Position numbers and translations under genes: made by a program. From contig OY771506.1 of NCBI GenBank assembly GCA_963674705.1, positions 1,152,001 to 1,216,000 of the forward strand: a stretch of 64,000 nucleotides of DNA, given 5' to 3'. Positions 6,941-56,728 of this stretch are shown here, piece by piece. How positions within the stretch are numbered: position 1 is the stretch's first letter; each line of letters starts with the position of its first letter. The notes beneath the pieces were generated by a model. The model saw nothing but the letters and a program-made list of their open reading frames with translations, made no database searches and was not told where the DNA came from. The DNA is from Phycisphaeraceae bacterium. Its GTDB lineage: Bacteria > Planctomycetota > Phycisphaerae > Phycisphaerales > Phycisphaeraceae.

Positions 6941-7165
6941 GGGGTCTGGGGTCTAGGGTCCGGGGTCTGGCAAGACGGATGCGGTATCGCTTGCCGGTGG
7001 ATAGTGTAGCGGGGGTGTTGGGGTCTGGGGTTTAGGGTCCGGGGTCTGGCAAAGCCAATGCGGCCGAAGCTGTGAGGTGGTTTGTGTGGGTGCCGGGCTT
7101 ATGGCACTGCCGGTCTCCCACTTCCGACCAGACCCTAGACTCCAGACCCTAGACCCAACACCTAA
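6941..7165. repeat. Heptamer tandem repeats (GGGGTCT/AGACCCC family): two direct copies and one inverted copy
   Basis: 6941-6973 and 7020-7052 are 33-nt direct repeats with 1 mismatch; complementary CCAGACC/CTAGACC tract at ~7128-7165; first tract abuts the maf ATG. Confidence 0.85.
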
Positions 7166-7316
7166 ATCCGCTTTATCAGTACTGATATTCAAGATTCGGT
7201 GCTGGTGGTCCCGATAACTGGCAACAGGGTTGATACGGTTGTCGGCCCCTCGAAGCGCCCGGTCCGGCTCTGACGTGTGAGTTGGCCGGCGGGTTTCACG
7301 GACGAAAGGCCCGGTT

Positions 7317-8729
7317 GTGCGAACCATTGCGATCATCAATCAGAAGGGTGGATGCGGCAAGACGACTTGCTCGATCAATCTCGCCGCCTCCCTGTCCGCC
7401 AAAGGCAAGCGCACCCTGCTGGTCGATATGGACCCGCAATCACATTGCGCGATGGGGTTGGCTGTGCCGGATGCACAGATCGACAAGTCGATCGCGGACA
7501 TGTTGCGAGTCGGTCTTGACGGGTCGCTTGCGATGTCGGAGATCACTTGGCAGATCGCGCGTGGGTTTGACCTTGCGCCGTCGTCGATCATGCTCGCTGG
7601 GATCGAGGCCCAACTGAACACCGCGCCGGACAAGGATCGGCGACTGGTGCAGGTCCTGTCGACGGTGCAGGACCATTATGATTTTTGCATTATTGACTGC
7701 CCGCCATCGATCGGGCTTTTGACGTTTAACGCGCTGCGTGCATCGGACGAGGTGTTGATCCCTGTCGAGACGGGATTCTTCTCGATGCAGGGTGCGGTGC
7801 GGCAGCAGCAGACGATCCGGATGCTGGCAAGGCGTGCGGGGCATCACGTGCGTTTCAGCGTGCTGGCGACGATGTATGACGTGCGTACGAAGCTGGCGCG
7901 TGAGATTTTGAGTGAGCTTCGGCGGCACTTCGGCGAAGACCTTTTGCCGATCGTGATCAACTTCAACAGCAAGCTGAAGGAAGCGGCGAGCTTCGGTCAG
8001 CCTATCACGGAATACGACGCGGCCAGCCGGGGCATGCAGGATTTTGAACGGCTGGCGGACTGGCTGTTGGCGAACCCGCCGGCACCGATGGTGTTCCCGT
8101 CGCAGGGTTTTGACGGTGAGCAGCCGATGCAGCAGCCCGTGGTGCAGAGCCAGAGCATAAACCCGGCGATGAGCCGGGCGGCGGAGCTGGTGGAGCGTGC
8201 CCGTGCGTTATCGACGCGGACCGCGGAATTGTCGTCGCGGCTGGCCAGTGATGAAGATGCACAGGCGGAAGGTTTTGCGCCACAGGCTCCGCATATTCCT
8301 GCGATGCCAAGCCCGCAGCCGTCGCCACAGTCTGAACAGGCGCCCGCACAAGCGCCGATGTCGAGTCGGCTGGCTCATGTGGAGCCCGGGGCGAGTAAGC
8401 CGGTGGTTCACGAGGTGCCGGACAGTTTTGAGAAGAAGCTGGCCGGGCTGTTTGGTGCCCGGCATACGGCCCAAGGGCTGCTGTTTATTCAGCCGGACAC
8501 CAAGGCGAGACAGGTCGCGATCGCGGGTGACTTTAATGGCTGGGACCCGGCGAGCACGCCGTTGAAGCGTGATTCGAACCTGGGAGTCTGGCAGACGTGC
8601 GTACCGGTGCCGCCGGGCCGATACCGCTACCGGTTGGTGGTGGATGGGCACTGGGTGCAGGACCCGTACAACAGTTATGTCGAGTCGAATCCGTTCGGCG
8701 AGTTGAACAACATCGTGGTTGTCGCATAG
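7317..8729 (+). CDS. ParA/Soj-family ATPase fused via a Pro/Gln-rich linker to a C-terminal glycogen-binding (CBM48/AMPK-beta-like) domain
   Basis: NQKGGCGKTT deviant Walker A, LVDMDPQ, IIDCPP; C-terminus VAIAGDFNGW..GVWQ..PPGRYRYRLVVDGHWVQDPYN..NPFGELNN. Confidence 0.9.
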   Translation: MRTIAIINQKGGCGKTTCSINLAASLSAKGKRTLLVDMDPQSHCAMGLAVPDAQIDKSIADMLRVGLDGSLAMSEITWQIARGFDLAPSSIMLAGIEAQLNTAPDKDRRLVQVLSTVQDHYDFCIIDCPPSIGLLTFNALRASDEVLIPVETGFFSMQGAVRQQQTIRMLARRAGHHVRFSVLATMYDVRTKLAREILSELRRHFGEDLLPIVINFNSKLKEAASFGQPITEYDAASRGMQDFERLADWLLANPPAPMVFPSQGFDGEQPMQQPVVQSQSINPAMSRAAELVERARALSTRTAELSSRLASDEDAQAEGFAPQAPHIPAMPSPQPSPQSEQAPAQAPMSSRLAHVEPGASKPVVHEVPDSFEKKLAGLFGARHTAQGLLFIQPDTKARQVAIAGDFNGWDPASTPLKRDSNLGVWQTCVPVPPGRYRYRLVVDGHWVQDPYNSYVESNPFGELNNIVVVA

Positions 8730-8819
8730 GCTTTGTTGTATCCCACGGAGGGACCCGGGGGTTCGCATGCCATGGAGGGCGGCGAGGAGAAGTACACGAA
8801 CAACCATCGGCGGTCAGTC

Positions 8820-10727
8820 ATGGACGACACACGCACGCAACAAGCCTTGGACGAGTTGGCCGATCTGTTTCTCACAGGTCAGGGGCCGAAGTCTGCATCG
8901 GCTCAATCCGAGCCGGGTTCCCCTTCTGCTATTGATGATGAAACGGACGGTTTGAGCGGTCCTGCGCCGATCCGGCTTGGGCCCAAGCTGCGGTCGACGG
9001 CTGCGCCGCGTCCGGTTCAGCCGGTTGAGCAGGACGAGTCGGATCTGGACGAGACGCCGTTGCGTCTGCATACCGACGACGATGATGATGAACCGGTGGG
9101 CTCGATCGGTATGGATGAAGAAGATGAGTACGAGGTGTTTGAAGACGACCGTGATGCGCTGCTGGAAGAAGTAGAGCACGACGAGTTTGAAGAAGCCTCG
9201 CCCGGTTATGCCGTGGCGGTTGAGGCGGTGATCCTGGGGAATTTGCCGGGATTGAGCGGGCCGTGGTTGACGCAGTACGCGCAGTTGCTGGCTCAGCAGG
9301 AGGGGCCGGTCGCGATCCTGCATGTGGATGACGACCTGATCGACCTGGAACTGGTAGAACCGACCAGCCAGCAAGGCAGCAGCCGGGGCGTGTCGCTGCG
9401 GATGGCTCCGGGCGGCGGGAAGCTGGACCCGGTGACGGTGCTTGAAGCATTACTGGATTCAACGGACAGCGCGCCGGGGACGATCCTGGTGCATCTTGAT
9501 CCGCAGAATGATGAGCAGGGGCTTTCGCGTGCGTTAATGATCGAAGACTGGACGCTGATGAGCGGCGCGGATGACCTGGCGGTCGTCGGCGGGTACCGCA
9601 TGCTCAAGACGATGGTCGAGCAGGACCCGGCGGTCGCTTCCAAGCGTGTCGGGCTGATGGTCATGGGCTCGGACCCGCAGGTCAGCCAGGAAGCGGCGCG
9701 GAAGTTCCAGACCGCGGCCCAGAGTTTCCTGAATACGCCGGTACAGTTGCTTGGCTGGCAGAAACAGATGGTGCCGGTGAACCTGCGTCATCTCGGGCGG
9801 TTCGAGGATGTGGATTCGGCGTGGCCTCGGTTGGCGGACTGGTTCGATGCGTACGCGGCGACCGAGCCGATGGTCGTGGATCAGCCGGTGATCCAGGAAG
9901 AGCCGATCGAGCAGCCGGTGTATCGATCGACGGTCGTGCGTGAACCTAAACGTGAAGTCGAGCCTGAACCTGTCAGCGAGGTGGAAGTCGAGGAGTTGAT
10001 CGAGCAGGCAGAGCCGGAACCGATCCGCATGCCGGAGCCGGTGATCCGCAGGCCGCTACCGCGATTCGAGCCGAGATCGCGACCAGTTGCGCCGCCTGCT
10101 GCTGAGCAAGCAGAACCCGAAGTCGAAGAAGTAGAACCGCAGCCGGTCGCGCGTGAACCTGAGCCGCAGCCGGTTGAAGCGGCAACTCAACCCGCGCCAG
10201 AACCTGCGCCGCAGCCCGAACCTGAACCGGTCGTGCAGCAAGCGCCGCAGCCGGTCGCTGTTCCACCGTCGGTCGAACCCGAATACGAAGCGGAAGAATA
10301 CGAGATCGAAGAGCCGGACCTCGTTGAACTGTTGATGGCTGGTCCCGGTGCTGTGCCGGGCGGGATCGCGATGGAAGCGCGCTGCCCGCATCAGCCCAAT
10401 ACGCAACTCATGCTCGATCAGGCCGGCCGATTGCACCTGCTGTATTACCACGACTCGGAAGAATCGGGTCTTGACGGTTTGCAGCCGGCGATGGTCGATC
10501 TCTTGCAGGCCCGCAAGTGGGTGCATGAACATCTGCAACTGTTGCAACTGACCCAGCGCCAGTTGAAGTTCGATACCGATGCTGAACCTGTTTTACACCT
10601 GTTTACCGATCGCGCGGACTGGGGCACAGCCCTGGTGATGCGTGTCGGCGGATCGTTAAAGCTTCACCTGCTTCAGGCCGTCGAAGTCGGCGGCGAGGTG
10701 GCGTGGTTCTGCACACCCTTGAACTAA
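8820..10727 (+). CDS. Large acidic protein with Pro/Glu-rich low-complexity linkers, unknown function (probable ParA partner)
   Basis: Long ORF with normal codon usage directly after parA-CBM; N-terminal ALDELADLFLT; EPEP repeats; start chosen at ATG 8820 (ATG 8772 also possible). Confidence 0.75.
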   Translation: MDDTRTQQALDELADLFLTGQGPKSASAQSEPGSPSAIDDETDGLSGPAPIRLGPKLRSTAAPRPVQPVEQDESDLDETPLRLHTDDDDDEPVGSIGMDEEDEYEVFEDDRDALLEEVEHDEFEEASPGYAVAVEAVILGNLPGLSGPWLTQYAQLLAQQEGPVAILHVDDDLIDLELVEPTSQQGSSRGVSLRMAPGGGKLDPVTVLEALLDSTDSAPGTILVHLDPQNDEQGLSRALMIEDWTLMSGADDLAVVGGYRMLKTMVEQDPAVASKRVGLMVMGSDPQVSQEAARKFQTAAQSFLNTPVQLLGWQKQMVPVNLRHLGRFEDVDSAWPRLADWFDAYAATEPMVVDQPVIQEEPIEQPVYRSTVVREPKREVEPEPVSEVEVEELIEQAEPEPIRMPEPVIRRPLPRFEPRSRPVAPPAAEQAEPEVEEVEPQPVAREPEPQPVEAATQPAPEPAPQPEPEPVVQQAPQPVAVPPSVEPEYEAEEYEIEEPDLVELLMAGPGAVPGGIAMEARCPHQPNTQLMLDQAGRLHLLYYHDSEESGLDGLQPAMVDLLQARKWVHEHLQLLQLTQRQLKFDTDAEPVLHLFTDRADWGTALVMRVGGSLKLHLLQAVEVGGEVAWFCTPLN

Positions 10728-10816
10728 ACGATACATCCCTGCACCGTCTTCCTTCCTCCCACCGCACCGGATTGCCAACACCCGGCAACTTCCGGTGCCG
10801 ACGGAAATCACACGGA

Positions 10817-12637
10817 TTAACGACGGCGCAGCAGTGTCACGCCGCACATCAACATAAGTACTGCCGAAACGGGTTCGGGAATGGTAGTTATATCGGTTGC
10901 TGGGGGTGTGCCGACGTTCCAGTTGTTGAGTACGAGGTCGAGGTCTTCGAGGAAGATGTATCCGTCCCCCGACGCGTCGCCGGCTGACGAGTCGCCCGGA
11001 TCGGTGTGGGTAAGCCAGTTGTTCAGGATGATCTCCAAGTCTTCCATGCCGACGAATCCATCATGATTCAGGTCGCCGGTCAGTCCTAATTCGAAGCGGA
11101 AGATGGCTTCGTTGCCGTCGTTTATTTCAGCGTTGTATGTCAGTTGACCAAGGTCATTGATCGCGGACTTCCAGCCATTTTCCGCTCCCGCGCCTTGGTG
11201 CATGAAAAGGATATCGATCCCCCAATGTCCTTCCAGCGCGACCAGGGACAACTCCCCGTTCGGCTGGCTGACCCAGATGCTTTCCAGCGTTGCGCCATCG
11301 GGGCCGATCAGGTTGTTCTCAAAAACAATTTGTCCTGATCGGTTCATGATGGGTTCACGATAGAACTGGTTGAAGTAAAAGCCGGGGTCGGCGCCGGGCG
11401 CCGGATCACCTGCACGGACGATTAATTCCAAGGTGCCGCTACGGTTTGACCACAGGCCCGAATTATTGGTTTCATCCGTACCCGGCCCGCTAAGGCCGGC
11501 AAAGAAGGCGATCCGCCCGCGTTCATTGAGAACGGGTTCGTACAGGGCAAGCTCCCATGGGTTGGCCGGGGCGAACACCTGGCCGGGATCGGCTCCCGGG
11601 GCCTGGTCGCCCTCGCGTACTAACAGGACGTCGGCAACCGTGCTTGAAGACCAGATGCCTTCATCGTTGGTTTCATCTACACCCTCCCCGGATAATCTGG
11701 CATTAAATACAACTTGCTCGTAGTGGTTGAAACGGACCGATGAAAAGTAATCTGCGAAAACAGCGGACGTACCCGGGGCCGGGTTCCCCGTGCGTGCGAT
11801 CAGGTCCAGCGAACCCGAACGCTCGGCCCAGATGCCGGCGCTGTTGGTATCGTCGATGATTTCCAATTCTTCCGGGGCGGTGAGTGAAGCGCTGAACGCG
11901 ACTTGCCCCGACTGGTTGATGATCGGATTATCGGTGAACCCATCGAAGACAACTTCTTGCTCGGTTCCCGGCGCGTGGTTGCCTGCCCGGGCTACGACCC
12001 ATAACGAGCCGACCCCGCCCGACCAGATACCCATGTAGTTCGTCGCATCGACTCCCGGCCCTCCCAGCCTGCCTCGGAAGGCGGTTTGGCCGTTCACATT
12101 GGTTGCGAGCTTGTAATAGTTCGGGCTAAAAAACAGGCTTTTGAAGTACACACCTTCACCGGTGCCGGGGGCGTGATCGCCATCGCGAACAAGCAGGTCG
12201 AGTGAGTCATCACGCGCAATCCACAGGCCGCTGTCGTTGGATGAACTGATGTCCGGGCCGATCACCGACGCAACGAAGGCGACCTCATCGCCGTTGTAGA
12301 CCACCGGATCACTGATAAGCTGGAAAGTGATATCTTCATCTTCATCGGGGGGTGATTCACCACGCAACACCGTCTTCTCTAAAACCCCACCGCTGGTCGA
12401 CCACAAACCGAATTGGTGGCCGGTGTAAGTTGCCTTGAACGAGACTTCCCCGGTATTGCTGATTGACGGGGTGAGAAACCCGGTGAACTCAACCTCCGGA
12501 ACGCCCGGCACAGCGCGACCGGTGTAGGCAATCACTTCGCCCGGGTAGGGAACCGCGTGTGCCTCTTGCCCACTGCCTGTACCGATACAGAACAGCGCCA
12601 GGCCCATCAATGTCCTGCGAACGGATGTGTTTAACAT
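10817..12637 (-). CDS. PEP-CTERM surface protein with NxxGxxAF repeats and a dockerin-like domain
   Basis: Repeated N..G.VAF / GIW..L.ARxG..APG units; GDLNHDGFVG..DL; IPEPVSAVLMLMCGVTLLRRR; start re-assigned to ATG 12637. Confidence 0.85.
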   Translation of the reverse strand: MLNTSVRRTLMGLALFCIGTGSGQEAHAVPYPGEVIAYTGRAVPGVPEVEFTGFLTPSISNTGEVSFKATYTGHQFGLWSTSGGVLEKTVLRGESPPDEDEDITFQLISDPVVYNGDEVAFVASVIGPDISSSNDSGLWIARDDSLDLLVRDGDHAPGTGEGVYFKSLFFSPNYYKLATNVNGQTAFRGRLGGPGVDATNYMGIWSGGVGSLWVVARAGNHAPGTEQEVVFDGFTDNPIINQSGQVAFSASLTAPEELEIIDDTNSAGIWAERSGSLDLIARTGNPAPGTSAVFADYFSSVRFNHYEQVVFNARLSGEGVDETNDEGIWSSSTVADVLLVREGDQAPGADPGQVFAPANPWELALYEPVLNERGRIAFFAGLSGPGTDETNNSGLWSNRSGTLELIVRAGDPAPGADPGFYFNQFYREPIMNRSGQIVFENNLIGPDGATLESIWVSQPNGELSLVALEGHWGIDILFMHQGAGAENGWKSAINDLGQLTYNAEINDGNEAIFRFELGLTGDLNHDGFVGMEDLEIILNNWLTHTDPGDSSAGDASGDGYIFLEDLDLVLNNWNVGTPPATDITTIPEPVSAVLMLMCGVTLLRRR

Positions 12638-12765
12638 GGAAAGCCCCCATTCGATAGATGCTTGCCGGATAAACCCCGGCGGTGTAATACCAAGCCGATT
12701 GAACATCGGATCTATAAAATTGACGTTTTTAGTCTATCAAAGCATCGTCTGGATACAAGACAAAT

Positions 12766-16170: not shown

Positions 16171-16238
16171 GCCGGATAATCTCCACCTTTTCTATGACAC
16201 CACGTGTTTGAGAGCGGTGGTGTTTAGTTCGATGGCGA

Positions 16239-19682: not shown

Positions 19683-19892
19683 CTGAATTGTCTCCGCCCT
19701 TTTGTTCCCAACGGGATGATTGATCACAGTAATGCCGGTGAATCCGGTGCCCCCACAAACCGGCTGAGCGGATTCGAGCAAGTAACGTAATCTACAGGCT
19801 GTCGCCCTCACGGGCCAGCGTTATTTTGTTAAATAATTGTCGGAAAAGGTTTTAGGAGACAAGTGGGTCCGGATACCCGCCCCGACCAACAT

Positions 19893-21070: not shown

Positions 21071-21111
21071 AGTGACACTCATTAACAATAATCATCCGAG
21101 GGAGACTCAAT

Positions 21112-35224: not shown

Positions 35225-35257
35225 CCCGAACCCCGAACCCCGAACCCCGAACCCCGA
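35225..35257. repeat. Heptamer tandem repeat (CCCGAAC)4.7, G-rich on the transcribed strand, abutting the epimerase stop
   Basis: Read directly; adjacent to the stop codon at 35258-35260. Confidence 0.9.
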
Positions 35258-36214: not shown

Positions 36215-36246
36215 ATCGGGTTTCGGGTATCGGGTTTCGGGTATCG
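36215..36246. repeat. Heptamer tandem repeat TCGGGT(T/A) x4.5, C-rich on the transcribed strand, abutting the epimerase ATG
   Basis: Read directly. Confidence 0.9.
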
Positions 36247-36323: not shown

Positions 36324-37169
36324 TCACCTCACCGGATTGGTAAAGCGGTTGTCTTTTCGCAGGCCTTCGCGGTATCGGCCGTGAGCGCCGTTGAGGGTGG
36401 ATTTACGGATGGCGTCGGTGAGTGCTTTGACCATCCAGTTGCCGTTGTATTGCGCATCCAATTCATCCAGCGCGGTAAAGCTGGCACCGCCGGTATCTTC
36501 GCTGGCGCGTTTGAACAGCACTTTCCACGCTTCTTTCAGACATTTTTCGTCATCGGGCGAGAAGCCGTGGCGTTTCAGGCCGATTGCATTGACGCCGCGG
36601 ATGCGCGAGGGGTTGCCCTCGGCGATCATGAAGGGCGGCACATCGTAGACGATGCGTGTCATCCCGCCGACGTAGGCGTACTGTCCGATGGTGACGAAGT
36701 GATGGCAGGCGGTAGCGCCGCCGACGGTGGCGTGGTCGTCGATATGGACGTGGCCGGCGAACTGGACGCCGTTGCAGATGACGGTGTGGTTCCCGACGAC
36801 GCAGTCGTGGCCGAGGTGGGCGTAGGCCATGATCAGGTTGTGGTCGCCGACGGTGGTGACGCTCTGGTCGTTATGCGTGCCTTTATGGATGGTGACGTTT
36901 TCGCGGATGTCGTTGTGGTCGCCGATGATCAGTTCGCTGTCTTCGCCCTTGAACTTCAGGTCCTGTGGATCGGCGCCGAGTGTTGTGAAGGGCCAGACCG
37001 TGTTGTCTGTTCCAAGCGTTGTGCGTCCGAGGACGCAGACGTGGCTGACCAGCCGTGTGCCGGGGCCAAGTGTTGTTTGAGGCCCGACCCGACAGAACGG
37101 CCCGATGACCACATCCTCAGCGAGTGTGGCGCCGTCTTCAACTACCGAACTGTCGTGGATGGTGGGCAT
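36324..37169 (-). CDS. lpxA: UDP-N-acetylglucosamine acyltransferase
   Basis: Hexapeptide repeats; PQDLKFKG, IRENVTIH.GT, HLGHDC, AGHV, DVPPF. Confidence 0.95.
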   Translation of the reverse strand: MPTIHDSSVVEDGATLAEDVVIGPFCRVGPQTTLGPGTRLVSHVCVLGRTTLGTDNTVWPFTTLGADPQDLKFKGEDSELIIGDHNDIRENVTIHKGTHNDQSVTTVGDHNLIMAYAHLGHDCVVGNHTVICNGVQFAGHVHIDDHATVGGATACHHFVTIGQYAYVGGMTRIVYDVPPFMIAEGNPSRIRGVNAIGLKRHGFSPDDEKCLKEAWKVLFKRASEDTGGASFTALDELDAQYNGNWMVKALTDAIRKSTLNGAHGRYREGLRKDNRFTNPVR

Positions 37170-37238
37170 GGGCAAAAGCAGGACAGCAGAAAATTAGGAA
37201 AGCAGGAAATAAAGCCGGGGTTAAAGATCGTTTTCTTT

Positions 37239-37287
37239 CGATACCCGATACCCGATACCCGATACCCGATACCCGATACCCAGACCC
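37239..37287. repeat. Heptamer tandem repeat (CGATACC)6+CAGACCC, G-rich on the transcribed strand, abutting the lpxC-fabZ stop
   Basis: Read directly; stop codon at 37288-37290. Confidence 0.92.
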
Positions 37288-43366: not shown

Positions 43367-44473
43367 ATGACCACCACCACTGAGGACAAGGTGATGCCCA
43401 TGGCCTCGGACCAGCTACCGACCGACAAACTGATGGACATGCTCTATCAGATGATGCTCATCCGCCGATTCGAAGAGCGGACGATGCAGGCGTACCAGCA
43501 GGCGAAGATCGGCGGGTTCTGCCACATCTACATCGGCCAGGAGGCCACCGCAGTCGGGGCGATCGCCGCCCTGAAGGATGACGACCCGGTGATCACCGCC
43601 TACCGCGATCACGGCCACGCCCTGGCACGCGGGATGCACCCCAACTACTGCATGGCGGAGATGTACGGCAAGATCACCGGTTGTGCCAAGGGTAAGGGCG
43701 GGTCGATGCATATGTTCGACAAGCCTCACCACATGTACGGCGGCCACGCGATCGTCGGCGGGCAGTGTCCGCTGGGTGTCGGGCTGGCGTTCGCTTCTCA
43801 GTATGAAAAGAAAGACAACGTCACGGTCTGCTTCTTCGGCGACGGTGCGATCAACCAGGGCGCGTTCCACGAAGCGATGAACCTCGCGGCGATCTGGAAC
43901 CTGCCGATCCTCTTTGTGGTTGAGAACAACGGCTACTCGATGGGTACCGCGATCAACCGCGGGACCGCTGCGGCCGACAATCTCGGCGCGAAGGCGGCGG
44001 CGTACGGCATGCGTTACGCCGAGTGCGACGGCATGGACGTGCTGGACACGTACAAAGTCTTCAAACGCGAAGCCGATGCGTCGCGAGGCAGCACGAGCAG
44101 CGCCCTCGGCCTTGAAGATGCCGGCGGAGGCCCCTGCTTCATCAACGCCAAGACCTACCGCTATCAAGGCCACTCCATGAGCGACCCGCAGAAGTACCGC
44201 TCGAAGGATGAGGTCAACGAGCGCAAGGAAAAAGACTGCATCAACACGCTGGTCAACTACCTGGTCGAAAACGATCTGGCGTCACAGGATCAGATCAACG
44301 AACTGGACAAGAAAGCCAAGGTCGCCTCACGCGACGCCATCACCTACGCCGAGCGATCTCCCGACCTGCCGATGTCCGAGATGTACACGGATATCTACGC
44401 CCAACCGTACGGCCCACCGTTCGTGAAGGGCGGACTGCCGAAGATGATCACGGATGGGAATTCGGGGGAGTAG
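43367..44473 (+). CDS. pdhA: Pyruvate dehydrogenase E1 alpha subunit
   Basis: IGGFCHIYIGQEA, YRDHGH, GKGGSMH, FGDGAINQG..N, TYRYQGHSMSDP. Confidence 0.96.
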   Translation: MTTTTEDKVMPMASDQLPTDKLMDMLYQMMLIRRFEERTMQAYQQAKIGGFCHIYIGQEATAVGAIAALKDDDPVITAYRDHGHALARGMHPNYCMAEMYGKITGCAKGKGGSMHMFDKPHHMYGGHAIVGGQCPLGVGLAFASQYEKKDNVTVCFFGDGAINQGAFHEAMNLAAIWNLPILFVVENNGYSMGTAINRGTAAADNLGAKAAAYGMRYAECDGMDVLDTYKVFKREADASRGSTSSALGLEDAGGGPCFINAKTYRYQGHSMSDPQKYRSKDEVNERKEKDCINTLVNYLVENDLASQDQINELDKKAKVASRDAITYAERSPDLPMSEMYTDIYAQPYGPPFVKGGLPKMITDGNSGE

Positions 44474-44511
44474 ATCGGGTATCGGGGTTCGGGTGTCGGG
44501 TATCGGGAAGA
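44474..44511. repeat. G-rich heptamer tract (left arm) starting at the first base after the pdhA stop
   Basis: ATCGGGT ATCGGGG TTCGGGT GTCGGGT ATCGGG AAGA. Confidence 0.9.
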
Positions 44512-44518
44512 TAACCGC

Positions 44519-44893
44519 ATGATGGATAACGATTCATACCGGGGTTTGGAGGTCTGGCAGGTTGCCATGGACCTCGTTGAAGAGGTTTACCGTGTAACAG
44601 CGTTGTTGCCGGAGGCCGAGAAATACGGACTAACTAGCCAATTACGAAGGGCGACTACATCCATACCCGCCAACATCGCAGAGGGTTACGGCCGATCACA
44701 CCGGGGTGATTACTTGCGCCACCTGTCGATCGCACGCGGTTCGCTAATGGAGATAGAGACTCACCTGATGATCGCGGTGAGGCTCAAACAACTGGAACGT
44801 GAGATGGCCATCCCTGCATGGCAACTCACTCAACGCGTCGGCCAGATGCTTACGAAACTCATCCAGGCCTTGAAACAAAGCGAACAGGGTTAA
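44519..44893 (+). CDS. Four-helix-bundle protein (23S rRNA IVP / Avd-like family)
   Basis: SYRGLEVWQ.AM.L...Y, P..EKYGLTSQLRRA..SIPANIAEG.GR, L.IARGSL.E.ET.L. Confidence 0.93.
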   Translation: MMDNDSYRGLEVWQVAMDLVEEVYRVTALLPEAEKYGLTSQLRRATTSIPANIAEGYGRSHRGDYLRHLSIARGSLMEIETHLMIAVRLKQLEREMAIPAWQLTQRVGQMLTKLIQALKQSEQG

Positions 44894-44900
44894 CACACCC

Positions 44901-44937
44901 TCTTCCGATACCCGACACCCGATACCCGAAACCCGAC
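44901..44937. repeat. C-rich heptamer tract (right arm) ending at the base before the pdhB ATG
   Basis: TCTT CCGATAC CCGACAC CCGATAC CCGAAAC CCGAC; complementary to 44474-44511. Confidence 0.9.
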
Positions 44938-45972
44938 ATGAGAACCATCCAATATAGAGAAGCCCTCCGTGAAGCCATGCAGGAAGAGATGCGGCGTGAT
45001 GACCGTGTGTTCCTGATGGGTGAAGAGGTGGCGCAATACAACGGTGCTTACAAGGTCAGCCAGGGGATGCTCGATGAATTCGGGCCTCGGCGTGTGGTTG
45101 ACTCGCCGATCAGTGAGACCGGATTCTCCGGGCTGGGCATCGGCGCGGCGATGTACGGGCTTCGGCCGATCATCGAGTTTATGAGCTGGTCGTTCTGCCT
45201 CGTCGCGGCCGACCAGATCATCAACAACGCGCCGAAGATGCTATACATGTCAGGTGGACAATTCGGCTGCCCCGCTGTCTTCCGCGGCAACAACGGCGCG
45301 GGCGGTCAGCTTGGGTCGACGCACTCGTGGTGTGTGGAGTCGATGTTCTCCAGTGTGCCGGGGTTGAAGGTGGCGATCCCTTCGACGCCGCGTGATGCCA
45401 AGGGTTTGTTGAAGACGGCTATCCGGGATGAAGACCCTGTGTTCAATCTCGAATCCGAACGCATGCTCGGTTTGGGCGCGCGTGGCGAGAAGGATTTTTC
45501 TCGGTATATCAAGGACAATTGGGCCCCGCCGACGGTTGAAGAGGATGAGGATTTTAAGATCCCGTTCGGTGTCGCGGACATCAAGAAGCCCGGCAAGGAC
45601 GTCACCATCGTCGCCGCCGGCCGGCCGGTGCACTTTGCATTAGAAGCTGCTGAAGAACTTGAGAAGCAAGGCATCGATTGCGAAGTCATTGACCCGCGTA
45701 CGTATCGGCCGCTCGACATCGACACGATTGTACGAAGCGTACGTAAGACGAACTACTGCGTCGTCGTCGATCAGAGTTGGCCATTTGCGAGCGTCGGCGC
45801 GGAGATCGCGGCGCAGGTATATGAAAACGCGCTCGATGATTTGGATAACAAGGTGATCCGCGTCAACAACGACGACATCCCCGCCCCCTACAACCGCACG
45901 ATGGAACAGGAGATGCTCCCGAACGCGAAGAAGATCGTGGAGGCGGTGAAAGCGGTGACGTATAACAACTGA
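44938..45972 (+). CDS. pdhB: Pyruvate dehydrogenase E1 beta subunit
   Basis: YREAL.EAM.EEM, GEEVAQYNGAYKVS, DSPISE, GLRPIIEFM, EVIDPRT.RPLD; start ATG 44938. Confidence 0.95.
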   Translation: MRTIQYREALREAMQEEMRRDDRVFLMGEEVAQYNGAYKVSQGMLDEFGPRRVVDSPISETGFSGLGIGAAMYGLRPIIEFMSWSFCLVAADQIINNAPKMLYMSGGQFGCPAVFRGNNGAGGQLGSTHSWCVESMFSSVPGLKVAIPSTPRDAKGLLKTAIRDEDPVFNLESERMLGLGARGEKDFSRYIKDNWAPPTVEEDEDFKIPFGVADIKKPGKDVTIVAAGRPVHFALEAAEELEKQGIDCEVIDPRTYRPLDIDTIVRSVRKTNYCVVVDQSWPFASVGAEIAAQVYENALDDLDNKVIRVNNDDIPAPYNRTMEQEMLPNAKKIVEAVKAVTYNN

Positions 45973-46065
45973 GCGCGTTACGTTCACACCTTATCCGAGC
46001 CGCGTCGCCCCCGATGCGGTCCGCCGTGGGGGCACGGCGGCTCAGTTATGTGATGTATTTTCCAC

Positions 46066-47370: not shown

Positions 47371-47477
47371 ACGGCCCCCTTTAACATGTGTATTCCGCAA
47401 ACGCCCAGCACCATTCGTGTCTGGTCATATTGCCGTTGCATACGCGACGCCGCCTCTTGCTGATCCGGCGGCGATGT

Positions 47478-48431: not shown

Positions 48432-48485
48432 CGAGGCATTATCTGGGGCGCAGATGCCGATGCAAAATTTGGTGATGTTTCGCAA

Positions 48486-49439: not shown

Positions 49440-49744
49440 GACACACCCCCTGGCGACGAAAGATCGGGACAGGCGACTCCGGTTTTATTTTTGGACCCCC
49501 AATACCCCCGGGCGGTTCCACCTAATGGGTCGTCCAGCCAATCATTAGGCCCTTCTATCCTGATAGACGCAGCCAAACAGATTTTTGACTTGCCGATTTG
49601 CAGGAAATGTTAGAAATCATGAGATTGGCTGTGAATCCTCGCTCGGGTCAACGTGCCGGAGGGGGATTCTTCGGCTACGATATGGCGACTGGGCGGATGC
49701 CCAAACTCTAATAATAAACCCCCAACGCACAGGAGCCCCACCGG

Positions 49745-51067
49745 ATGTCGATTGAGATCACCATGCCACGCCTCTCGGACACCATGGAAGAGGGAACGCT
49801 GGTCAAATGGCGGGTCAAACCCGGTGATGAGGTTGCCTCCGGAGACCACCTGGCGGACGTCGAGACCGATAAGGCGACGATGGAGCTTCAGGCGTTCGAT
49901 GATGGCAAGGTAGCGGCCTTGGCGGTCGAGGAAGGCGATACGGTGCCCGTCGGCAGCCCGATCCTGGTGCTGGCTGAGGACGGGGAATCCCTGGACGACG
50001 CGGCAGCGGCCTTGGATGGGGCGTCAGTAAGTTCTGGTGGGGACTCCGCCTCGGTTGCGGCGTCTGAAGGTGGCGTGGCAGTCGCGGACCCACCCCAAAC
50101 AGATACGGCGACCACCATCTCGGGCAGGCCGTCCGAATCGACCGGAAGCCGGCTGCGTGTCAGCCCGGTGGCGAGAAAGATCGCTGAAGAGCACGGTGTT
50201 GATGTGACCGTTCTGAAAGGCACGGGGCCTGACGGGCGGATCATCAAGCGGGACGTGCTGGCGGTGGTTGAGGGGCAATCAACTCAGGCCGCCGCCCCGG
50301 CGCCGACCCAGGCCGCTAAAGCGAAAGCCGCGACGACACCGAGCGTGCCCGTGGCAGCGGTCGGGATGGAAGCCAAGACGATCAATCTCACGAACATGCG
50401 TAAGACGATCGCCCGTCGGCTGGTCGAGTCCAAGACGACGGTCCCCCACTTCCAGGTCTCGATGTCCATCAACATGGATCCGTTGATGGATCTGCGTAAG
50501 ACGCTCAATGTTCAGCTCGAAGCTCAAGGTGTGAAGCTCTCGGTCAATGACTTCATTACCCGGGCGACGGCGCTGGCATGCCTGAGCCATCCGGCGGCCA
50601 ACAGCTCGTGGAACGGTGACACGATCATCCAGCACGGGACGGTGAATGTCGGTGTGGCGGTGTCGCTGCCGGAAGAACGCGGCGGCGGACTGGTGGTGCC
50701 GGTGATCCGCGATGCACAGAACAAGGGTCTGCGCCAGATCAGCGAAGAAACCAAGCGATTAGCCAAGAAGGCGCGTGAGACCGGCCTGAGCCCCGAGGAG
50801 ATGGCCGACGGCACGATTACGCTGAGCAACCTCGGGATGTATGGCGTGGATCAGTTCACCGCGATCATCAATCCACCGCAGTCTGTGATCCTGGCGGTAG
50901 GCGGCGCGATCGAGAAGCCGGTCGTGCGTGATGGTCAGATCGTGGTCGGCCACGTAATGAGCGCGACGCTTTCAGGCGACCACCGCGTGATAGACGGCGC
51001 CCAAGGCGCGGAATATCTCGCCAGCTTCAAGCAGTTGCTGGAAAACCCGGCGTCGTTGCTTGTGTAA
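49745..51067 (+). CDS. pdhC: Dihydrolipoamide acetyltransferase (E2), single lipoyl domain
   Basis: MPRLSDTMEEG, VETDKA, SPVARK..G.G..GRI, SNLGMYG, DHRVIDGA. Confidence 0.95.
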   Translation: MSIEITMPRLSDTMEEGTLVKWRVKPGDEVASGDHLADVETDKATMELQAFDDGKVAALAVEEGDTVPVGSPILVLAEDGESLDDAAAALDGASVSSGGDSASVAASEGGVAVADPPQTDTATTISGRPSESTGSRLRVSPVARKIAEEHGVDVTVLKGTGPDGRIIKRDVLAVVEGQSTQAAAPAPTQAAKAKAATTPSVPVAAVGMEAKTINLTNMRKTIARRLVESKTTVPHFQVSMSINMDPLMDLRKTLNVQLEAQGVKLSVNDFITRATALACLSHPAANSSWNGDTIIQHGTVNVGVAVSLPEERGGGLVVPVIRDAQNKGLRQISEETKRLAKKARETGLSPEEMADGTITLSNLGMYGVDQFTAIINPPQSVILAVGGAIEKPVVRDGQIVVGHVMSATLSGDHRVIDGAQGAEYLASFKQLLENPASLLV

Positions 51068-51097
51068 CACTTTCCGGACCTGCCGGACAGATCATTA

Positions 51098-51871
51098 TCA
51101 GGCCGCGGAATCGTGCTGGTTGATGACGCCGGCCGGTGCATGTTGCTTTTCGTCTCGCTCCAGTCGAAGTATGACGGGCGAGCCGAAGGCGTATGTGAGA
51201 CCCAAGGCGTGGCTGGTGGCCTCCATGGCGTGTGAGAGGCCGGGGCGCTTCAGTGCGCGGTGCACGACCATGGGCCAGAAGAACTGTCGCCGTCGACCAT
51301 GCGGGATAAAGCCGTGTGCTTTGGTGACGGCGCTGATCTGCCTTGTGGAGAAACACCGGTACCAGCGGGTATTGCCTTCGATCTTCTTTTTCAAGCCGAA
51401 GAGCAGTTTCTCAACGAAGTTCACACTGAACAACGTGGGGTAATCAATAATGACAGCGTGTCGGGCGACACGTGTGGCTTCTGCGAGGAAGCGCGGATAG
51501 TCCTCGACGTGAGCCATCAGCCGTAAGGCAATGACGGTGTCGAAAGACTGGTCCTCGTAAGGCAGGTTCAGCAGGTCGCCGGTGTGGAAGGTGAATCGCT
51601 GGTGGTCGAGGAACGGTGTAAGCCGGTGGGCGCAGCTTGGGTCGCTGCCCATCACGGTCAGGTTGTAGTCGTGATCCAATAGCGACCCGGCCAATTGTGC
51701 ATGGCCGCCGCCCAACTCGAGGATGTGTTTGCCCGGGCAGTCTTGCAGCAGGTTATGCACGGCCTTCCATTGGACATCCAGCAGCCAGGTACCGACGGGT
51801 CCGGTAAACCGACGGGCGTAGTCGTCGGTTGATGTTTCGATATCCGGGGTTTCTCGCTGGATCGTTTCCAA
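51098..51871 (-). CDS. Class I SAM-dependent methyltransferase
   Basis: ILELGGGHA, GDLLNLPYEDQSFDTV, H. Confidence 0.85.
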   Translation of the reverse strand: METIQRETPDIETSTDDYARRFTGPVGTWLLDVQWKAVHNLLQDCPGKHILELGGGHAQLAGSLLDHDYNLTVMGSDPSCAHRLTPFLDHQRFTFHTGDLLNLPYEDQSFDTVIALRLMAHVEDYPRFLAEATRVARHAVIIDYPTLFSVNFVEKLLFGLKKKIEGNTRWYRCFSTRQISAVTKAHGFIPHGRRRQFFWPMVVHRALKRPGLSHAMEATSHALGLTYAFGSPVILRLERDEKQHAPAGVINQHDSAA

Positions 51872-51977
51872 GGTTATTTCTCGTAGCCGGCCGGCGTTGT
51901 ATGCGATCGGTGGTTTGTCGGCTGGTTCATATCATCATAGCACACGCACCAGTCAAGCCGCCAAGAAATATATCGCG

Positions 51978-53510
51978 TCATGAAGCCTTGGACATGCTCG
52001 GGTATTGGGTGAATGTAACTTGCCCGTTGGCGGCACGTTTGCTGATGTACATGGCTTCATCTGCTGCGGCGATCAGGTCGTTGATCAGGGTTTGTTTACC
52101 GGGGTTGTTACAGATCGTGGCCCCGATGCTCAGGCGGAGTGTGGCTTGTCTGTTTTGGCCCAGGTGCACAGTTTTACCGTTGCATGCCGCGGCAACACGC
52201 TCGATGATGTTTCTTGCTGTTTCTTCGTCAACGTTAAGCTGAAGGATGGCGAACTCGTCACCCCCAAGCCGACCGAACAGGTCGCTGGAGTCGATGTTGT
52301 TCCGGATCTGCTTGGCGACTTCTATAAGCATAATGTCGCCGGCGTCGTGGCCGAGTGTATCGTTGATGGCTTTGAAGCCGTCCAGGTCGATCATGACCGC
52401 ACAGATTGGCAGGCAACGTTCCGTGGCGGTATGTATCCGGCGTTCACCGAGGCGGTTGAAGCCGCGCCGGTTGAGCACCTGGGTCAGCGGATCGGTCATC
52501 GCCTCGAACTGCAAGGCGTGCAGTTGTTCGTGCTTACGGGTCAGTTGGGCTTCCAACTCACAAAGCTGGTGGACCATGCTGGCGGTGTCTACTTCAAGTT
52601 CATAAAGCATGCGCTGCCGGGTTGCCTCATCGATCCGGACCGAGGGGGCGGCGCCGTGAACTTCACGGGCCTGTTTCACAGCCTGCTTGATCATCTGTTC
52701 GGGGGAATCGAACATGGTGTCGAGGAACTGGCTGTGCGTTGCGGTCAACCATTCCATGCGATCCGGCGTCATGGTTTCGCAGTTGTGAGGCAGCATTCCC
52801 GCGATAAGGTTGCCCAGGTTAGAACCGGAGTAATCGTTCTGCGACAGCAACGGCTGATGATGGTTGAGTACCTCTTCGCATATCAGTGGAGATGCGTTCC
52901 ATGATTGCAACAGGTGATTGGCTGCCTGGGCGTGGTCAATGCCGAAGTGTTCCTGCTCGCGGATCGACAGCGGGTTCTGGTGGCGGTGATTCACACTCAC
53001 TTGCTCGTAGAACTGTGGATCGATTGCCACCAAAGCGGTGAGCCCGATGTCCTGGATCAATCCGAGCGTGTATGCGCGGTCGGCTTCCCGGGGATCGACT
53101 GCTTCGGCGACGAGTTTGGCGAGGTGTGCCTTTTCGAGGCTGTTGATCCATATCCGGTGCGCGACCTCCAGGTCGATCCCGCTGTCTTTGGAGAGCATAT
53201 GCAACCCGAAAGCCATCGCAATCGAACGGGCACGGCCTGCGCCCATGTGCAGGACAGCGCGACGGATATCGCTGATCTCACCGACCACCCCGATCGCAGC
53301 CGAATTGGTTACGCTCAGCACACGCGCGGACAACGTTGAGGATTGCATCAGGGCCTGCGTGACACGCTCGGGGTTGTCCGGTGGCGCCTCAAGCAGTGTC
53401 AGCAGCGGCCCGGGTTGGACATCCAGCCGATCCAGGCGCTGCAACGTCGAACACGCCAGGTTCCGCGGGTTGTCCGGGCTGCGGTCAGATTCGCTCTCGC
53501 GATTTTCCAT
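51978..53510 (-). CDS. HDOD-domain diguanylate cyclase
   Basis: HDOD (L...NSA, GLIQDIG, E...FGIDH, W, HH); TDPLT.VLNRR, IDLDGFK.IND.LGH..GD, RLGGDEF; start ATG 53510. Confidence 0.9.
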   Translation of the reverse strand: MENRESESDRSPDNPRNLACSTLQRLDRLDVQPGPLLTLLEAPPDNPERVTQALMQSSTLSARVLSVTNSAAIGVVGEISDIRRAVLHMGAGRARSIAMAFGLHMLSKDSGIDLEVAHRIWINSLEKAHLAKLVAEAVDPREADRAYTLGLIQDIGLTALVAIDPQFYEQVSVNHRHQNPLSIREQEHFGIDHAQAANHLLQSWNASPLICEEVLNHHQPLLSQNDYSGSNLGNLIAGMLPHNCETMTPDRMEWLTATHSQFLDTMFDSPEQMIKQAVKQAREVHGAAPSVRIDEATRQRMLYELEVDTASMVHQLCELEAQLTRKHEQLHALQFEAMTDPLTQVLNRRGFNRLGERRIHTATERCLPICAVMIDLDGFKAINDTLGHDAGDIMLIEVAKQIRNNIDSSDLFGRLGGDEFAILQLNVDEETARNIIERVAAACNGKTVHLGQNRQATLRLSIGATICNNPGKQTLINDLIAAADEAMYISKRAANGQVTFTQYPSMSKAS

Positions 53511-53626
53511 GATGTTTTTACACAAATCCTGTGTCAATGGCGGGCATGAAATACATTGCCCTATCTGCCTATGAATCGACAAGATAGCTTTGTAAATGAA
53601 GTAATTACCCGGATATTCCCGCCCGA

Positions 53627-54343
53627 TTAAGTGCCTTCTTGGGCGTGTTCTCGGGCCCTGAGCAGGACGCTGTACAGCATATCGGACGTGAGTCGGCCGG
53701 TGAATGTGTTTTGTTGGCTGGGGTGGTAGCAACAGCCCAAAAGCGGCGCGTTATCGAACCTGTACCAGGTATCGTGGCCAAAGGGGTATTGATTGATCTT
53801 CTGGAGGTGTCCAAGCCTCTGGTAAATCCCAAGCACCGAGCGGTGTGCGATGCCCCCCAGCGAGAGTACGACCCGGAGTTGAGTTAGTGCCTTAAACGTT
53901 CTGTCCAGGTACTCACTACAGTTGTGAAGCTCCTGATTGGTGGGTTTGTTATCCGGCGGAGCGCAGTGGCCTGCTGCGGTGATGACCGTATCGATCAGCT
54001 CAAGTCCGTCGCCCTGACCCGTTGATTCTGCCCGGTTAGAGAATCCTGCCCGGTGCATCGCGCTGAAGAGAAAGTCCCCCGAGCGGTCGCCGGTGAACAT
54101 CCGCCCGGTCCGGTTAGCTCCCTGCGCGCCCGGAGACAAGCCCACGATCAAAAGCCTGGCAGATCCGGGGTCATCTGAATCAGAGGGCAGGAAGTTGGGT
54201 ACGGGCTTGCCCCAATATGTTTGGTTTTTGTACCTGGCGGTCTTCTGTTTGGCGACACGTTGGCAGTGTTCAACCAGGCGTGGGCAGCGCCGACAGCGTG
54301 TGATGGCGTTATTTAGCACGATCAGTGGTGGTCTGCGTGACAT
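53627..54343 (-). CDS. udgB: Uracil-DNA glycosylase family 5 (UdgB-like, Fe-S)
   Basis: C..CPRL, YWGKPVP, GLSPGAQGANRTGRMFTGDRSG, CAPPDNKP, YHPSQQN. Confidence 0.85.
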   Translation of the reverse strand: MSRRPPLIVLNNAITRCRRCPRLVEHCQRVAKQKTARYKNQTYWGKPVPNFLPSDSDDPGSARLLIVGLSPGAQGANRTGRMFTGDRSGDFLFSAMHRAGFSNRAESTGQGDGLELIDTVITAAGHCAPPDNKPTNQELHNCSEYLDRTFKALTQLRVVLSLGGIAHRSVLGIYQRLGHLQKINQYPFGHDTWYRFDNAPLLGCCYHPSQQNTFTGRLTSDMLYSVLLRAREHAQEGT

Positions 54344-54493
54344 ATGGGGATTTTAACGAGGGTTCGTGTCTTGCTGGTTGCGCAATGTATGACTCCCGCC
54401 AGAGTGTTCAGGCGGACGATTATCGGTAATCCATCTCATCCGAGCTCATGAAGTCGCCGAAGTTACCCGCAGCAATCCTATTTGGGGATCGTT

Positions 54494-55222
54494 ATGCGCT
54501 GGTTGATTAACTGTATGACATGTGTGATGGTCGCCGTGATCGTGGTCGCGGCGATCGGCCATCAGCGCGCGATCAAGCACGACGAACTGAAAATGCGGAC
54601 CGTTCACCACGGCCTGGATCAGTTTGGTGAACAGCTTGCGCTGCAGGGGGTGCTCTGGCAGAGCGAGAATGAAGAGGCCGGGGCGTATCCGCCGCAAGTC
54701 ATGCCCGAATGGTTCAACCAGAACGTGCCTAACAACCCGTTCCTTTCCGAGGATCGGCCCTGGATCGATATCGCGCCGGCCGACGACTACAACGAACACC
54801 CGCCGGACCCCCTGGTTGACGCTGGTAACCAGGCTGCGTTCTGGTACAACCCGAACAACGGCATCGTCCGCGCCCGTGTGCCGAGGCAGGTTTCCGACCG
54901 GTTGACGCTGTCGCTGTATAACTCGATCAATCACACCGGGCTGTCTGCACTGCCGCACGACAATGATCCTGACCGTGTGCCGTTGGCGTTCAACCCCAAC
55001 CCGGTGACGACCGGCCGACATGCCAGCCCCTACAAGCTGATCACCGGCAGAGTGACGGCGATGGATTCCGAAGCTGCCCCCGATGACGCCGAATCATCTG
55101 CTGCTAAGCAGGACCAAGTGCCTTGGTATGAGAAACGGGTCGTGCCTGAAGAGCCTGTCGAGACGGTGACCGAGGTCGAGACGGAATCTGATCAGAAGCG
55201 GCCCTCGCTTCTGGGCCAGTAG
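54494..55222 (+). CDS. Pilin-like membrane-anchored hypothetical protein
   Basis: N-terminal hydrophobic helix, G.YP, VPNNP, FWYNPNNG..RA; no GFTLIE motif. Confidence 0.7.
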   Translation: MRWLINCMTCVMVAVIVVAAIGHQRAIKHDELKMRTVHHGLDQFGEQLALQGVLWQSENEEAGAYPPQVMPEWFNQNVPNNPFLSEDRPWIDIAPADDYNEHPPDPLVDAGNQAAFWYNPNNGIVRARVPRQVSDRLTLSLYNSINHTGLSALPHDNDPDRVPLAFNPNPVTTGRHASPYKLITGRVTAMDSEAAPDDAESSAAKQDQVPWYEKRVVPEEPVETVTEVETESDQKRPSLLGQ

Positions 55223-55263
55223 CTTTCAGCCGCTGCCTTCGTTCTCTCGCTACAATCGGGGGT

Positions 55264-56490
55264 ATGACCCAGATTTATCACGAACAGCTATCCAACGGTC
55301 TGTGGCTGGTTGCTGAACCCAGCACCTCGGCCCAGTCGTTATCGATGACGTTGTTGACACCCGCCGGGGTCGCCAGTGAGCCCGAGGGGTCCCAAGGCGC
55401 CTCCGCCCTGCTCGAAGAGATGATCACCCGCGGCGCAGGTGGGCTTGATGCACGGGCCCACAGCGAGGCGTTGGATCAACTCGGTATTCAGCGGGGGACC
55501 AATGTCGAAACCCGTCACCTTCGACTAAGCGCCACCATGATCGCGGAGAAGCTCGACAAGGCGCTGCCATTGTTACTGAACATGGTGACCGCTCCGAATT
55601 TGTCGGATGCGTCTCTGGAACCGAGCCGGGACCTGGCGCTTCAGGCGATCCAGTCGTTGAATGATGAACCGCAGCAACAGGTCATGTTAAAACTACGCAG
55701 CCAGCACCACCCCGCGCCGCTCGGGCGATCACCCTATGGCACGGAGGCCGGGGTCAAACAAGTTACGGCTGACGGCCTGCGTGAATTCTGGCGCACGACC
55801 TGCGTGCCCGATGGCTCGATCCTGAGTTTTGCCGGCAAACTCGACTGGCCTAAGCTGCGAGATCTTGTCAATCAGCATGTCGACGGCTGGCAAGGCAAAC
55901 ACGAAGAGTTACAGTCGGCCGATAGCGGTCCGCGTGGTTACGCCCACGACAAAGCGGAGACCGCGCAGGTGCATATCGCACTGGCATACGACGCGGTACC
56001 CGAGCCGAATGAAAACAGCATCCTCCAGCGTGCGGCGGTGGCGGCGCTTTCCGGCGGGATGTCGGGGCGGCTTTTCACTGAGGTGCGCGAAAAACGCGGG
56101 CTGTGTTACTCGGTGTACGCCACCTATGCGGCGGGCAAGGACCGCGGTGCAGTGTTTGGTTATGCCGGCACGACCACACCACGTGCACAGGAGACGCTGG
56201 ATGTGATGGCCGGCGAACTACGTCGACTCAGCAAAGGCATCGACCAGAGTGAATTTGAACGCTCGATCGTCGGCATGAAGTCGCACCTTGTCATGCAAGG
56301 TGAATCAACCGGAGCGCGGGCCGGGGCAATCGCGGTAGATCAGTATGTGCTTGGTCGGCCGCGCACACTGGATGAACTGGCCGAACGCGTTGACAAGGTG
56401 ACACTGGAAGCACTCAACAACTTCTTGCACGAACAACCGCCGGGAGATTTTACGATAGCTACGATTGGACCGGAAGAATTGAAGGTGTAA
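55264..56490 (+). CDS. M16 (pitrilysin) family protein, probably a non-catalytic subunit
   Basis: LSNGL, GGMSGRLFTEVREKRGLCYSV; ALLEE where HxxEH is expected. Confidence 0.85.
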   Translation: MTQIYHEQLSNGLWLVAEPSTSAQSLSMTLLTPAGVASEPEGSQGASALLEEMITRGAGGLDARAHSEALDQLGIQRGTNVETRHLRLSATMIAEKLDKALPLLLNMVTAPNLSDASLEPSRDLALQAIQSLNDEPQQQVMLKLRSQHHPAPLGRSPYGTEAGVKQVTADGLREFWRTTCVPDGSILSFAGKLDWPKLRDLVNQHVDGWQGKHEELQSADSGPRGYAHDKAETAQVHIALAYDAVPEPNENSILQRAAVAALSGGMSGRLFTEVREKRGLCYSVYATYAAGKDRGAVFGYAGTTTPRAQETLDVMAGELRRLSKGIDQSEFERSIVGMKSHLVMQGESTGARAGAIAVDQYVLGRPRTLDELAERVDKVTLEALNNFLHEQPPGDFTIATIGPEELKV

Positions 56491-56528
56491 GAAAGGTTTT
56501 TGGTTATGCAACATACAGTGGGTGCAGT

Positions 56529-56728
56529 GATTTGAGATTAGCGATTTGCGATGCATGATTAAGAGACCCGGCCCTTCGCTTCGCTCAGAACCGGCGTTGG
56601 GAAGACCAAGCCATTAGCCTTTAGCTATTAGCCATTAGCACAAATCCTAAATCATCAATCCGAAATCATAAATACAATTCCCTACACCCTACACCCTACA
56701 CCCTACACCCTACACCCTACACCCTACC
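56529..56728. repeat. Composite repeat cluster: GATTnnn tract, REP-like element, AGCCATT tract, AATCnnn tract, then (CCCTACA)6+CCCTACC abutting the coaB ATG
   Basis: 56529-56560; 56566-56601; 56609-56639; 56643-56673; 56680-56728. Confidence 0.9.

Follow-up and report, generated by a model that had tools for sequence, protein, structure and literature searches.

Direct repeats with a period of 7 nt are known from the borders of genes in several bacterial groups. In Xanthomonas and Nostoc, the heptamers are GGGNATC and GGGGA(C/T)T, and the available text of the original report places their G-rich strand at most 50 bp after stop codons on the sense strand or at most 50 bp before open reading frames (ORFs) on the antisense strand (Rehm et al., 2015; PMC4692102). 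These repeats are intergenic, with about four units each; the same text gives 70 inverted pairs in Xcc and 75 in Xac, describes variation in length and sequence between relatives, and reports that no function was found. For TAACTGA direct repeats of Beggiatoaceae, Cyanobacteria, and Bacteroidetes, a translational role was proposed in the available text of another study (MacGregor, 2015; PMC4679880). In this work, we analyzed a 64,000-nt stretch of DNA (hereafter the window) from a Phycisphaeraceae bacterium (assembly GCA_963674705.1, contig OY771506.1, positions 1,152,001 to 1,216,000), in which heptamer tracts abut the start or stop codons of several genes. These heptamers are a further example of the published repeat class, and they are probably the arms of small inverted-repeat intergenic elements, with gene-less pairs and single arms as the likely decay products.

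Several properties are shared with the repeats of Xanthomonas and Nostoc. The unit GGGTATC found here fits GGGNATC, the period-7 units are mostly intergenic, the placement rule is the same, and inverted pairs have one orientation (21 vs. 2). In contrast, many unit families occur in one genome here, one of them with a reversed G/C sense, whereas the previous work used 50-bp bins and, in the text available, saw no tie to mobile elements (Rehm et al., 2015). The TAACTGA repeats are comparable in that, in the available text, forward-oriented sets of heptamers immediately precede start codons and cover the Shine-Dalgarno (SD) position, and one reverse set stands directly after a stop; they differ in having one AT-rich unit and no inverted-arm or cassette model (MacGregor, 2015). 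As a discovery, the placement rule is modest: an initial annotation of this DNA treated it as new, but it was already in print (PMC4692102; PMC4679880).

Placement and polarity of the heptamer tracts

The 5.54-Mb genome that holds the window (G000) contains 259 period-7 tracts, compared with none in each of two triplet-shuffled genomes used as background. Period 7 dominates, the commonest unit is GGGTATC (40/259 tracts), and GGGGATT is also present. The tracts are mostly non-coding in 85% of cases, while the non-coding share of the genome is 19%. Genes were predicted with our own hexamer caller, which gave 4122 genes in G000, with approximate starts and some short genes missed.

Among the 130 tracts with CCC units, the distance to a start or stop codon is 12 nt or less for the outer end in 58 and for the inner end in three, while random placement within the same gap gave a mean of 12 and a maximum of 20 in 200 trials. 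Within this distance, the C form precedes a start in 34 cases and the G form follows a stop in 24, and the reverse arrangements number two and one, respectively. A two-unit pattern, which is a more sensitive search than the tract list, was applied after the stops of 3883 genes and found a G arm in 52 and a C arm in four; before ATG codons, it found 58 C arms and four G arms. The polarity at gene borders is real and strong, and the bias in orientation and position relative to gene ends, on which the initial annotation had staked its rule, is present genome-wide.

All seven tracts listed in that annotation are present, with period 7 and a distance of 0-1 nt from a codon. Four precede the ATG of maf, an NAD-dependent epimerase gene, pdhB, and coaB, and three follow the TAG of pdhA, lpxC-fabZ, and the epimerase gene (Table 1); an NCBIfam search with 47 window proteins confirmed these gene names and that of lpxA. 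A spacer of 0-1 nt holds for these seven, but zero spacing is not the rule genome-wide, where only 22/130 CCC tracts lie within 2 nt of a codon, the spacers between arm and codon range over 0-14 nt, and 67/130 are more than 25 nt away from any called start or stop. In the window, seven of the nine CCC tracts touch a codon; the other two, both between parA and maf, touch none and were absent from the list.

The rule that G-rich tracts follow stops stands for the CCC family and fails as a universal one. AGCCnTT units follow stops in their C-richer form (9/60 at a distance of 12 nt or less, and none in the reverse form); a pure G/C rule is therefore rejected, and the rule is one of orientation, not of G content. 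The families AGCCATT, AACATTG, and AAATCAT are without G3 runs. Some units bear a resemblance to the core words of integron attC sites. When neighboring tracts on opposite strands are less than 700 nt apart, they are arranged as G...C in 21 cases and in the reverse order in two, which are both AGCC tracts. Each arm has a single outer end, namely the 3' end of its C-rich strand. On the strand of the adjacent gene, this end appears as a G-rich tract after a stop or as a C-rich tract before a start; the two rules are therefore one. An inverted-repeat element has just this one kind of outer end and would thus account for both halves of the polarity.

The initial annotation suggested targeted insertion. 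In this reading, a machinery would recognize start or stop codons, or RNA borders free of ribosomes, and place a cassette exactly at these sites. Such targeting would fit the high proportion of codon-touching tracts in the window, the in-register TAG unit found in 11 of 45 after-stop arms (all in-register cases have TAG), and the left cassette ends that hug stops across phyla (see below). However, the variable spacers argue against it, and a fixed register of arm to stop was rejected, as the signal (p = 5e-4) arises only if the stop itself may count as a unit and falls to p = 0.08 without that bias. The register before ATG was also not significant (p = 0.057), arms stop at -10-like boxes and internal positions as well, and no target duplication was seen. 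Codon-targeted insertion is unneeded to explain the pattern, and we consider it very unlikely.

Cassettes with four-helix-bundle genes

A full element would consist of a left arm, a four-helix-bundle (4HB) gene, and a right arm, an order that is found between pdhA and pdhB. The product of the gene at this junction matches TIGR02436 with 118 bits (cut-off 24) over model positions 1-109 of 109 and PDB 2GSC with an E-value of 9e-26; XCC0516 is the best PDB match. The cassette gene is thus a member of the TIGR02436/PF05635 family of 23S rRNA intervening-sequence proteins. According to the available text of one study, PF05635 is homologous to Avd of diversity-generating retroelements (PMC10053308). 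In the predicted fold of 44455-44950, the arms close into one stem (z = -5.3; prediction only). A gene within a long stem recalls the ORF-bearing rRNA intervening sequences; unlike these, the cassette lies between protein-coding genes and not in 23S rRNA. All six TIGR02436 copies of G000 are flanked by called protein-coding genes, with none inside a 23S rRNA gene.

Inverted arrays enclose five of these six genes, and their 7- or 8-mer unit differs from gene to gene (AGCCATT, CCCGATA, an AATCGCT type, and two 8-mer types). The divergent TIGR02436 gene at G000:3224184-3224501 is without clear arms; arm-less copies occur in relatives as well (L145-L147) and possibly represent a domesticated lineage. 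The same stop-to-start packaging, with inverted 8- or 10-mer arms, was observed for three GxxExxY genes of G000 (G000:2217462, 2220402, and 2957915). In the region G000:2217462-2220746, cassettes with GxxExxY, four-helix-bundle, and GxxExxY genes occupy successive junctions of one operon.

Similar cassettes are distributed across many phyla. Of the 79 related 4HB loci collected, the closest of which are mostly from Phycisphaerae records, 74 had enough flanking sequence, 42 have arrays on both sides, and 36 have inverted period-7 arms. In 25 of these 36 cassettes, a long-frame boundary is no more than 12 nt away from the left end, compared with 83/1003 for arbitrary points. Moreover, the number of array matches (single CCC pattern) correlates with the 4HB gene copy number (Spearman 0.61 over 41 genomes and 0.55 outside the genus, although kin are not independent).

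A corresponding case is found in Xanthomonas. Row 15 of the supplementary table of Rehm et al. (2015; PMC4692102) lists a repeat located 6 nt downstream of bccP that overlaps with the start of XCC0516, with no inverted partner listed, and this repeat lies between bccP and a four-helix-bundle gene. Helix-bundle genes are unmentioned in the main text of that paper and in the text of MacGregor (2015; PMC4679880), as far as these sources were available, and no printed link between the 4HB family and the repeats was found in a literature survey that covered few subscription papers.

States of the same junctions in related genomes

In relatives, one and the same junction may have a full cassette, a pair, a single arm, or no arm. 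Both genes were present in 26 of 30 pdhA-pdhB loci surveyed, 10 of which are from genomes of the genus. These 10 comprise three full cassettes, one gene-less pair, two single C arms, and four junctions without a clear arm; a cassette is also present in one genome of another genus. The left and right arms have one unit type in common, which varies from genome to genome. A gene-less pair, nested inside outer G/C remnants, is present at G000:2294914, where the sister genome G004 has a full cassette. At G000:2292107, G000 has a decamer element, and G004 and G009 have a cassette at that junction (sequence examined: 1.2 of 5.76 Mb for G004 and 0.8 Mb for G009). Paired arms are found at the lpxC-fabZ junction in G002, G005, G008, and G003, and the gene-less pair between parA and maf is also found in G009, G006, G005, and others. 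Upstream of coaB, the arm keeps its position among genus members, but the unit differs. This series of states supports the suggestion of the initial annotation that the tracts are orphan arms of 4HB cassettes. That suggestion was incomplete, as 36/130 CCC tracts, including that of coaB, are modules of a composite resembling repetitive extragenic palindromic (REP) elements, and the maf tract belongs to a gene-less pair.

The spacers are also subject to rapid turnover. We compared 41 tract-bearing spacers between G000 and the first 0.8 Mb of G004, with flanking genes that are mostly 90-100% identical, and found differences by 7-nt steps, switches of the unit in whole arrays, and replacement of modules; nesting and wholesale replacement between relatives were also observed. 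In public contigs, the two arms of the pdhA-pdhB cassette differ by +14 and +7 nt. The stop-side arm of the epimerase gene is 14 nt shorter in both G004 and public run X7, and the spacer between lpxA and the epimerase gene, which holds the start-side arm, is replaced in run X7 and wholly different in G004 too. An apparent empty allele in runs X4 and X7 was rejected, since the joints that skip the cassette are short pieces of other contigs, namely, gene-less pairs elsewhere. Classical insertion sequences and miniature inverted-repeat transposable elements are recognized by fixed termini and a target-site duplication; the arm termini observed here are not fixed.

Slippage is the main rival explanation. 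In this scenario, arrays would arise from seeds present by chance and grow in place by 7-nt steps. Strand-specific selection would then act as a filter that tolerates C/A-rich unstructured sequence before a start but not G-rich sequence, and the cassettes would be incidental. This is consistent with the 7-nt steps between sister genomes and public runs, with the 58/130 tracts that are single, and with the maf arm, which is a local duplication. Furthermore, an SD-like motif is present in just 834 of 2634 called ATG genes (about one third; the anti-SD is canonical), and the bases upstream of starts lean to C, so that a C arm before a start would cost little. However, slippage leaves unexplained the lack of C arms after stops (4 vs. 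52), the orientation of pairs, the matched units in both arms of one element, the whole-array unit switches between sisters, and the tie to one gene family. We regard it as unlikely.

We also considered lpxA as cargo between the arms at 37239 and 36215. This was rejected because lpxA commonly comes next after lpxC-fabZ in the wider family and is preceded by an 8-mer arm of its own. The gene (window 36324-37169) lies between lpxC-fabZ and the epimerase gene in G000, G004, and G007; six genus members (L003, L005-L008, and L010) do not have it at this junction.

Proposed encroachment of arms on stops, starts, and -10-like boxes

For C arms that end 9-39 nt from an ATG, a TANNNT box lies between arm and ATG in 11/27 cases, compared with 652/8212 in the background. 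Over the whole genome, counts of TANNNT are highest at 6-7 nt upstream of candidate ATGs (225 and 153, compared with about 60), and many transcripts may therefore be leaderless. The maf gene is a case in point. We compared 11 of 22 maf loci, namely those of the genus and G014. In nine relatives, maf starts 6-11 residues before the conserved LILAS and a few bases after a -10-like box, which lies 4-10 nt before the ATG. In G000 and G004, the duplicated C arm follows the box, and a new ATG is located three residues before LILAS. Judging from these alignments, the C arm probably encroached on the former 5' coding end of maf, and the case shows that such arms can apparently move a start codon.

On the stop side, after-stop arms (n = 45) adjoin TAG in 19 cases and TAA in five, compared with 619 and 1455 in the background. 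Among the genus alleles of the epimerase gene, four with the arm end in TAG and the six others do not, although these genomes are related.

These observations may be summarized in a model. Elements would settle in spacers that are overwritten again and again, and their outer end would creep outward until selection halts it at the first constrained base, which may be a stop codon, an ATG, or a -10 box. The creeping end would sometimes take over the stop or shift the start. Systematic C-terminal truncation by arms was rejected, as no excess was found against G009 (4/8 vs. 182/460).

A regulatory code would be another possible reason for arms to touch codons. According to proposals by MacGregor (2015), Rehm et al. 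(2015), and the initial annotation, a repeat-binding protein, a G-quadruplex, or an i-motif would control initiation, termination, or coupling. The C tracts do occupy the SD position, as noted in the initial annotation: an SD-like motif is present in 1/58 arm-led genes, compared with 32% of genes. At coaB and the epimerase gene, the position of the arm is conserved within the genus, G-quadruplex formation in vitro was reported for GGGNATC repeats in the available text of Rehm et al. (2015; PMC4692102), and the predicted pairing of the pdhA-pdhB arms would bring stop and start together. Nevertheless, the units vary between loci and switch between sisters, and 27/52 stop-side arms face convergent genes, compared with a background of 29%. 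In view of this enrichment at convergent junctions, operon coupling was also rejected as the only cause. Where an arm ends upstream of a -10-like box, as some do, it is probably not transcribed with the gene. Moreover, the non-G-rich 8- and 10-mer arms of other cassettes are placed alike, the arm is absent at orthologs in several relatives, and no regulatory role was found in the available text of Rehm et al. (2015; PMC4692102). Taken together, these sequence comparisons do not appear to support a translation-level code, which we consider improbable.

REP-like composites and classes of tracts

The 130 CCC tracts fall into four classes: 2 are next to a 4HB gene, 34 are paired with a G tract at most 260 nt inward, 36 are on a REP-like core, and 58 are single. 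REP and REPIN elements with their RAYT (Y1) transposases are a known kind of element that the core of the coaB composite resembles. The core is about 34 bp long and has 71 copies by a strict pattern and 103 by a looser one; in addition to that near coaB, the window contains cores at about 21040 and about 61590-61621. Three same-strand cores and one inverted core surround the Y1_Tnp gene at G000:387949, and this is the one among 14 Y1_Tnp matches with REP-like cores within 900 nt. The composite thus shares with REP/RAYT systems a short multi-copy core with inverted copies around a Y1 transposase gene. GIY-YIG was rejected as a partner, as no core was found near two of the three matches checked.

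Unlike in REP/RAYT systems, the core is used asymmetrically and is bordered on either side by heptamer and octamer modules that are ordered and interchangeable. Among the 103 cores, a C array lies downstream in 52 and a G array in none. Internal modules touch a codon in 0/12 cases and terminal modules in 15/24, and the coaB tract is the last module of its composite. It is likely that the REP-like element captured arm modules and may spread them too.

Several observations weigh against the interpretation of the tracts as arms of inverted-repeat elements. Only 2/130 CCC tracts now flank a 4HB gene and 58 are single, so that descent, shown at few junctions, is an extrapolation for all others. The 41 spacer comparisons between G000 and G004 revealed no clean recent insertion for which an intact empty site exists, no clean empty/filled pair, and no target duplication. 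The right ends of the cross-phylum cassettes are near a boundary in only 13/36. The correlation with 4HB copy number that the initial annotation proposed exists, but 11/28 genomes with a 4HB gene have fewer than five CCC-pattern matches and 2/13 without the gene have more. The excess of TAG beside arms is partly compositional, since G-rich non-periodic spacers favor TAG as well (22 vs. 12 TAA). Stop-codon turnover beside arms is not significantly raised (6/19 vs. 72/477, p = 0.098), and C-terminal lengths are mostly unchanged there.

Other features of the window

The positions of the features are given in Table 1. A search of the window against Rfam gave no matches at the gathering score. Some intergenic repeats of other types are also present. 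Decamer/octamer arrays, gene-less in the window, are located at 3034-3060, 5078-5102, and 6309-6328 and are of the type that flanks GxxExxY genes. The lpxK frame (window 5086-5120, - strand) enters a decamer array, which supplies its stop codon. Palindromes of the CCCTCTCCC type represent another intergenic repeat family and are found at 2835-2880 and 2920-2960, after the gene that ends at 2782.

Table 1. Heptamer arms and associated features in the window.
Feature	Position	Strand	Remark
C-form arm (CCCAGAC/CCCTAGA), end at maf ATG	6941..6970	-	Near-identical local duplicate of 7012-7049
-10-like hexamer TACACT	7003..7008	-	Putative promoter role, from the genome-wide peak
Second C-form arm, end just before -10-like box, no codon	7012..7049	-	
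G-form partner arm of gene-less pair between parA and maf	7128..7156	-	
Single G-form arm directly 3' of epimerase TAG, facing convergent gene	35225..35257	-	
C-form arm (CCCGATA/CCCGAAA), end at epimerase ATG (36214)	36215..36246	-	
8-mer array (TTTTCTGC type), right-arm form of another unit family	37175..37210	-	Few bases before lpxA ATG
G-form arm (GGGTATC) directly 3' of lpxC-fabZ TAG	37239..37287	-	
Left (G-form) arm of four-helix-bundle cassette, directly 3' of pdhA TAG	44474..44507	+	Pairs with right arm in predicted fold
Four-helix-bundle gene, TIGR02436, 124 aa	44519..44893	+	Between pdhA and pdhB
Right (C-form) arm of cassette, end at pdhB ATG (44938)	44901..44937	+	
REP-like core of composite intergenic element	56567..56600	+	
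AGCCATT and AAATC heptamer modules of composite	56609..56673	+	
C-form terminal module (CCCTACA x7), end 1 nt before coaB ATG	56680..56728	+	

Implications

The placement rule has stood unexplained for 10 years, and the interpretation of the tracts as arms of one element class provides a testable account of it. The supplementary table of Rehm et al. (2015) itself links the repeats to a protein of known structure, XCC0516, in a culturable bacterium. Beyond the arms themselves, a more speculative scenario, to which we give rather low credence, is that the heptamer repeats are non-autonomous progeny of a widespread selfish element, in which the Avd-like 4HB protein would bind the RNA stem closed by the arms and, with a host or borrowed polymerase, rewrite spacers from other loci. 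If so, these repeats would represent a conversion network that spans the genome and reshapes the ends of genes, exchanging stops and relocating starts as at maf.

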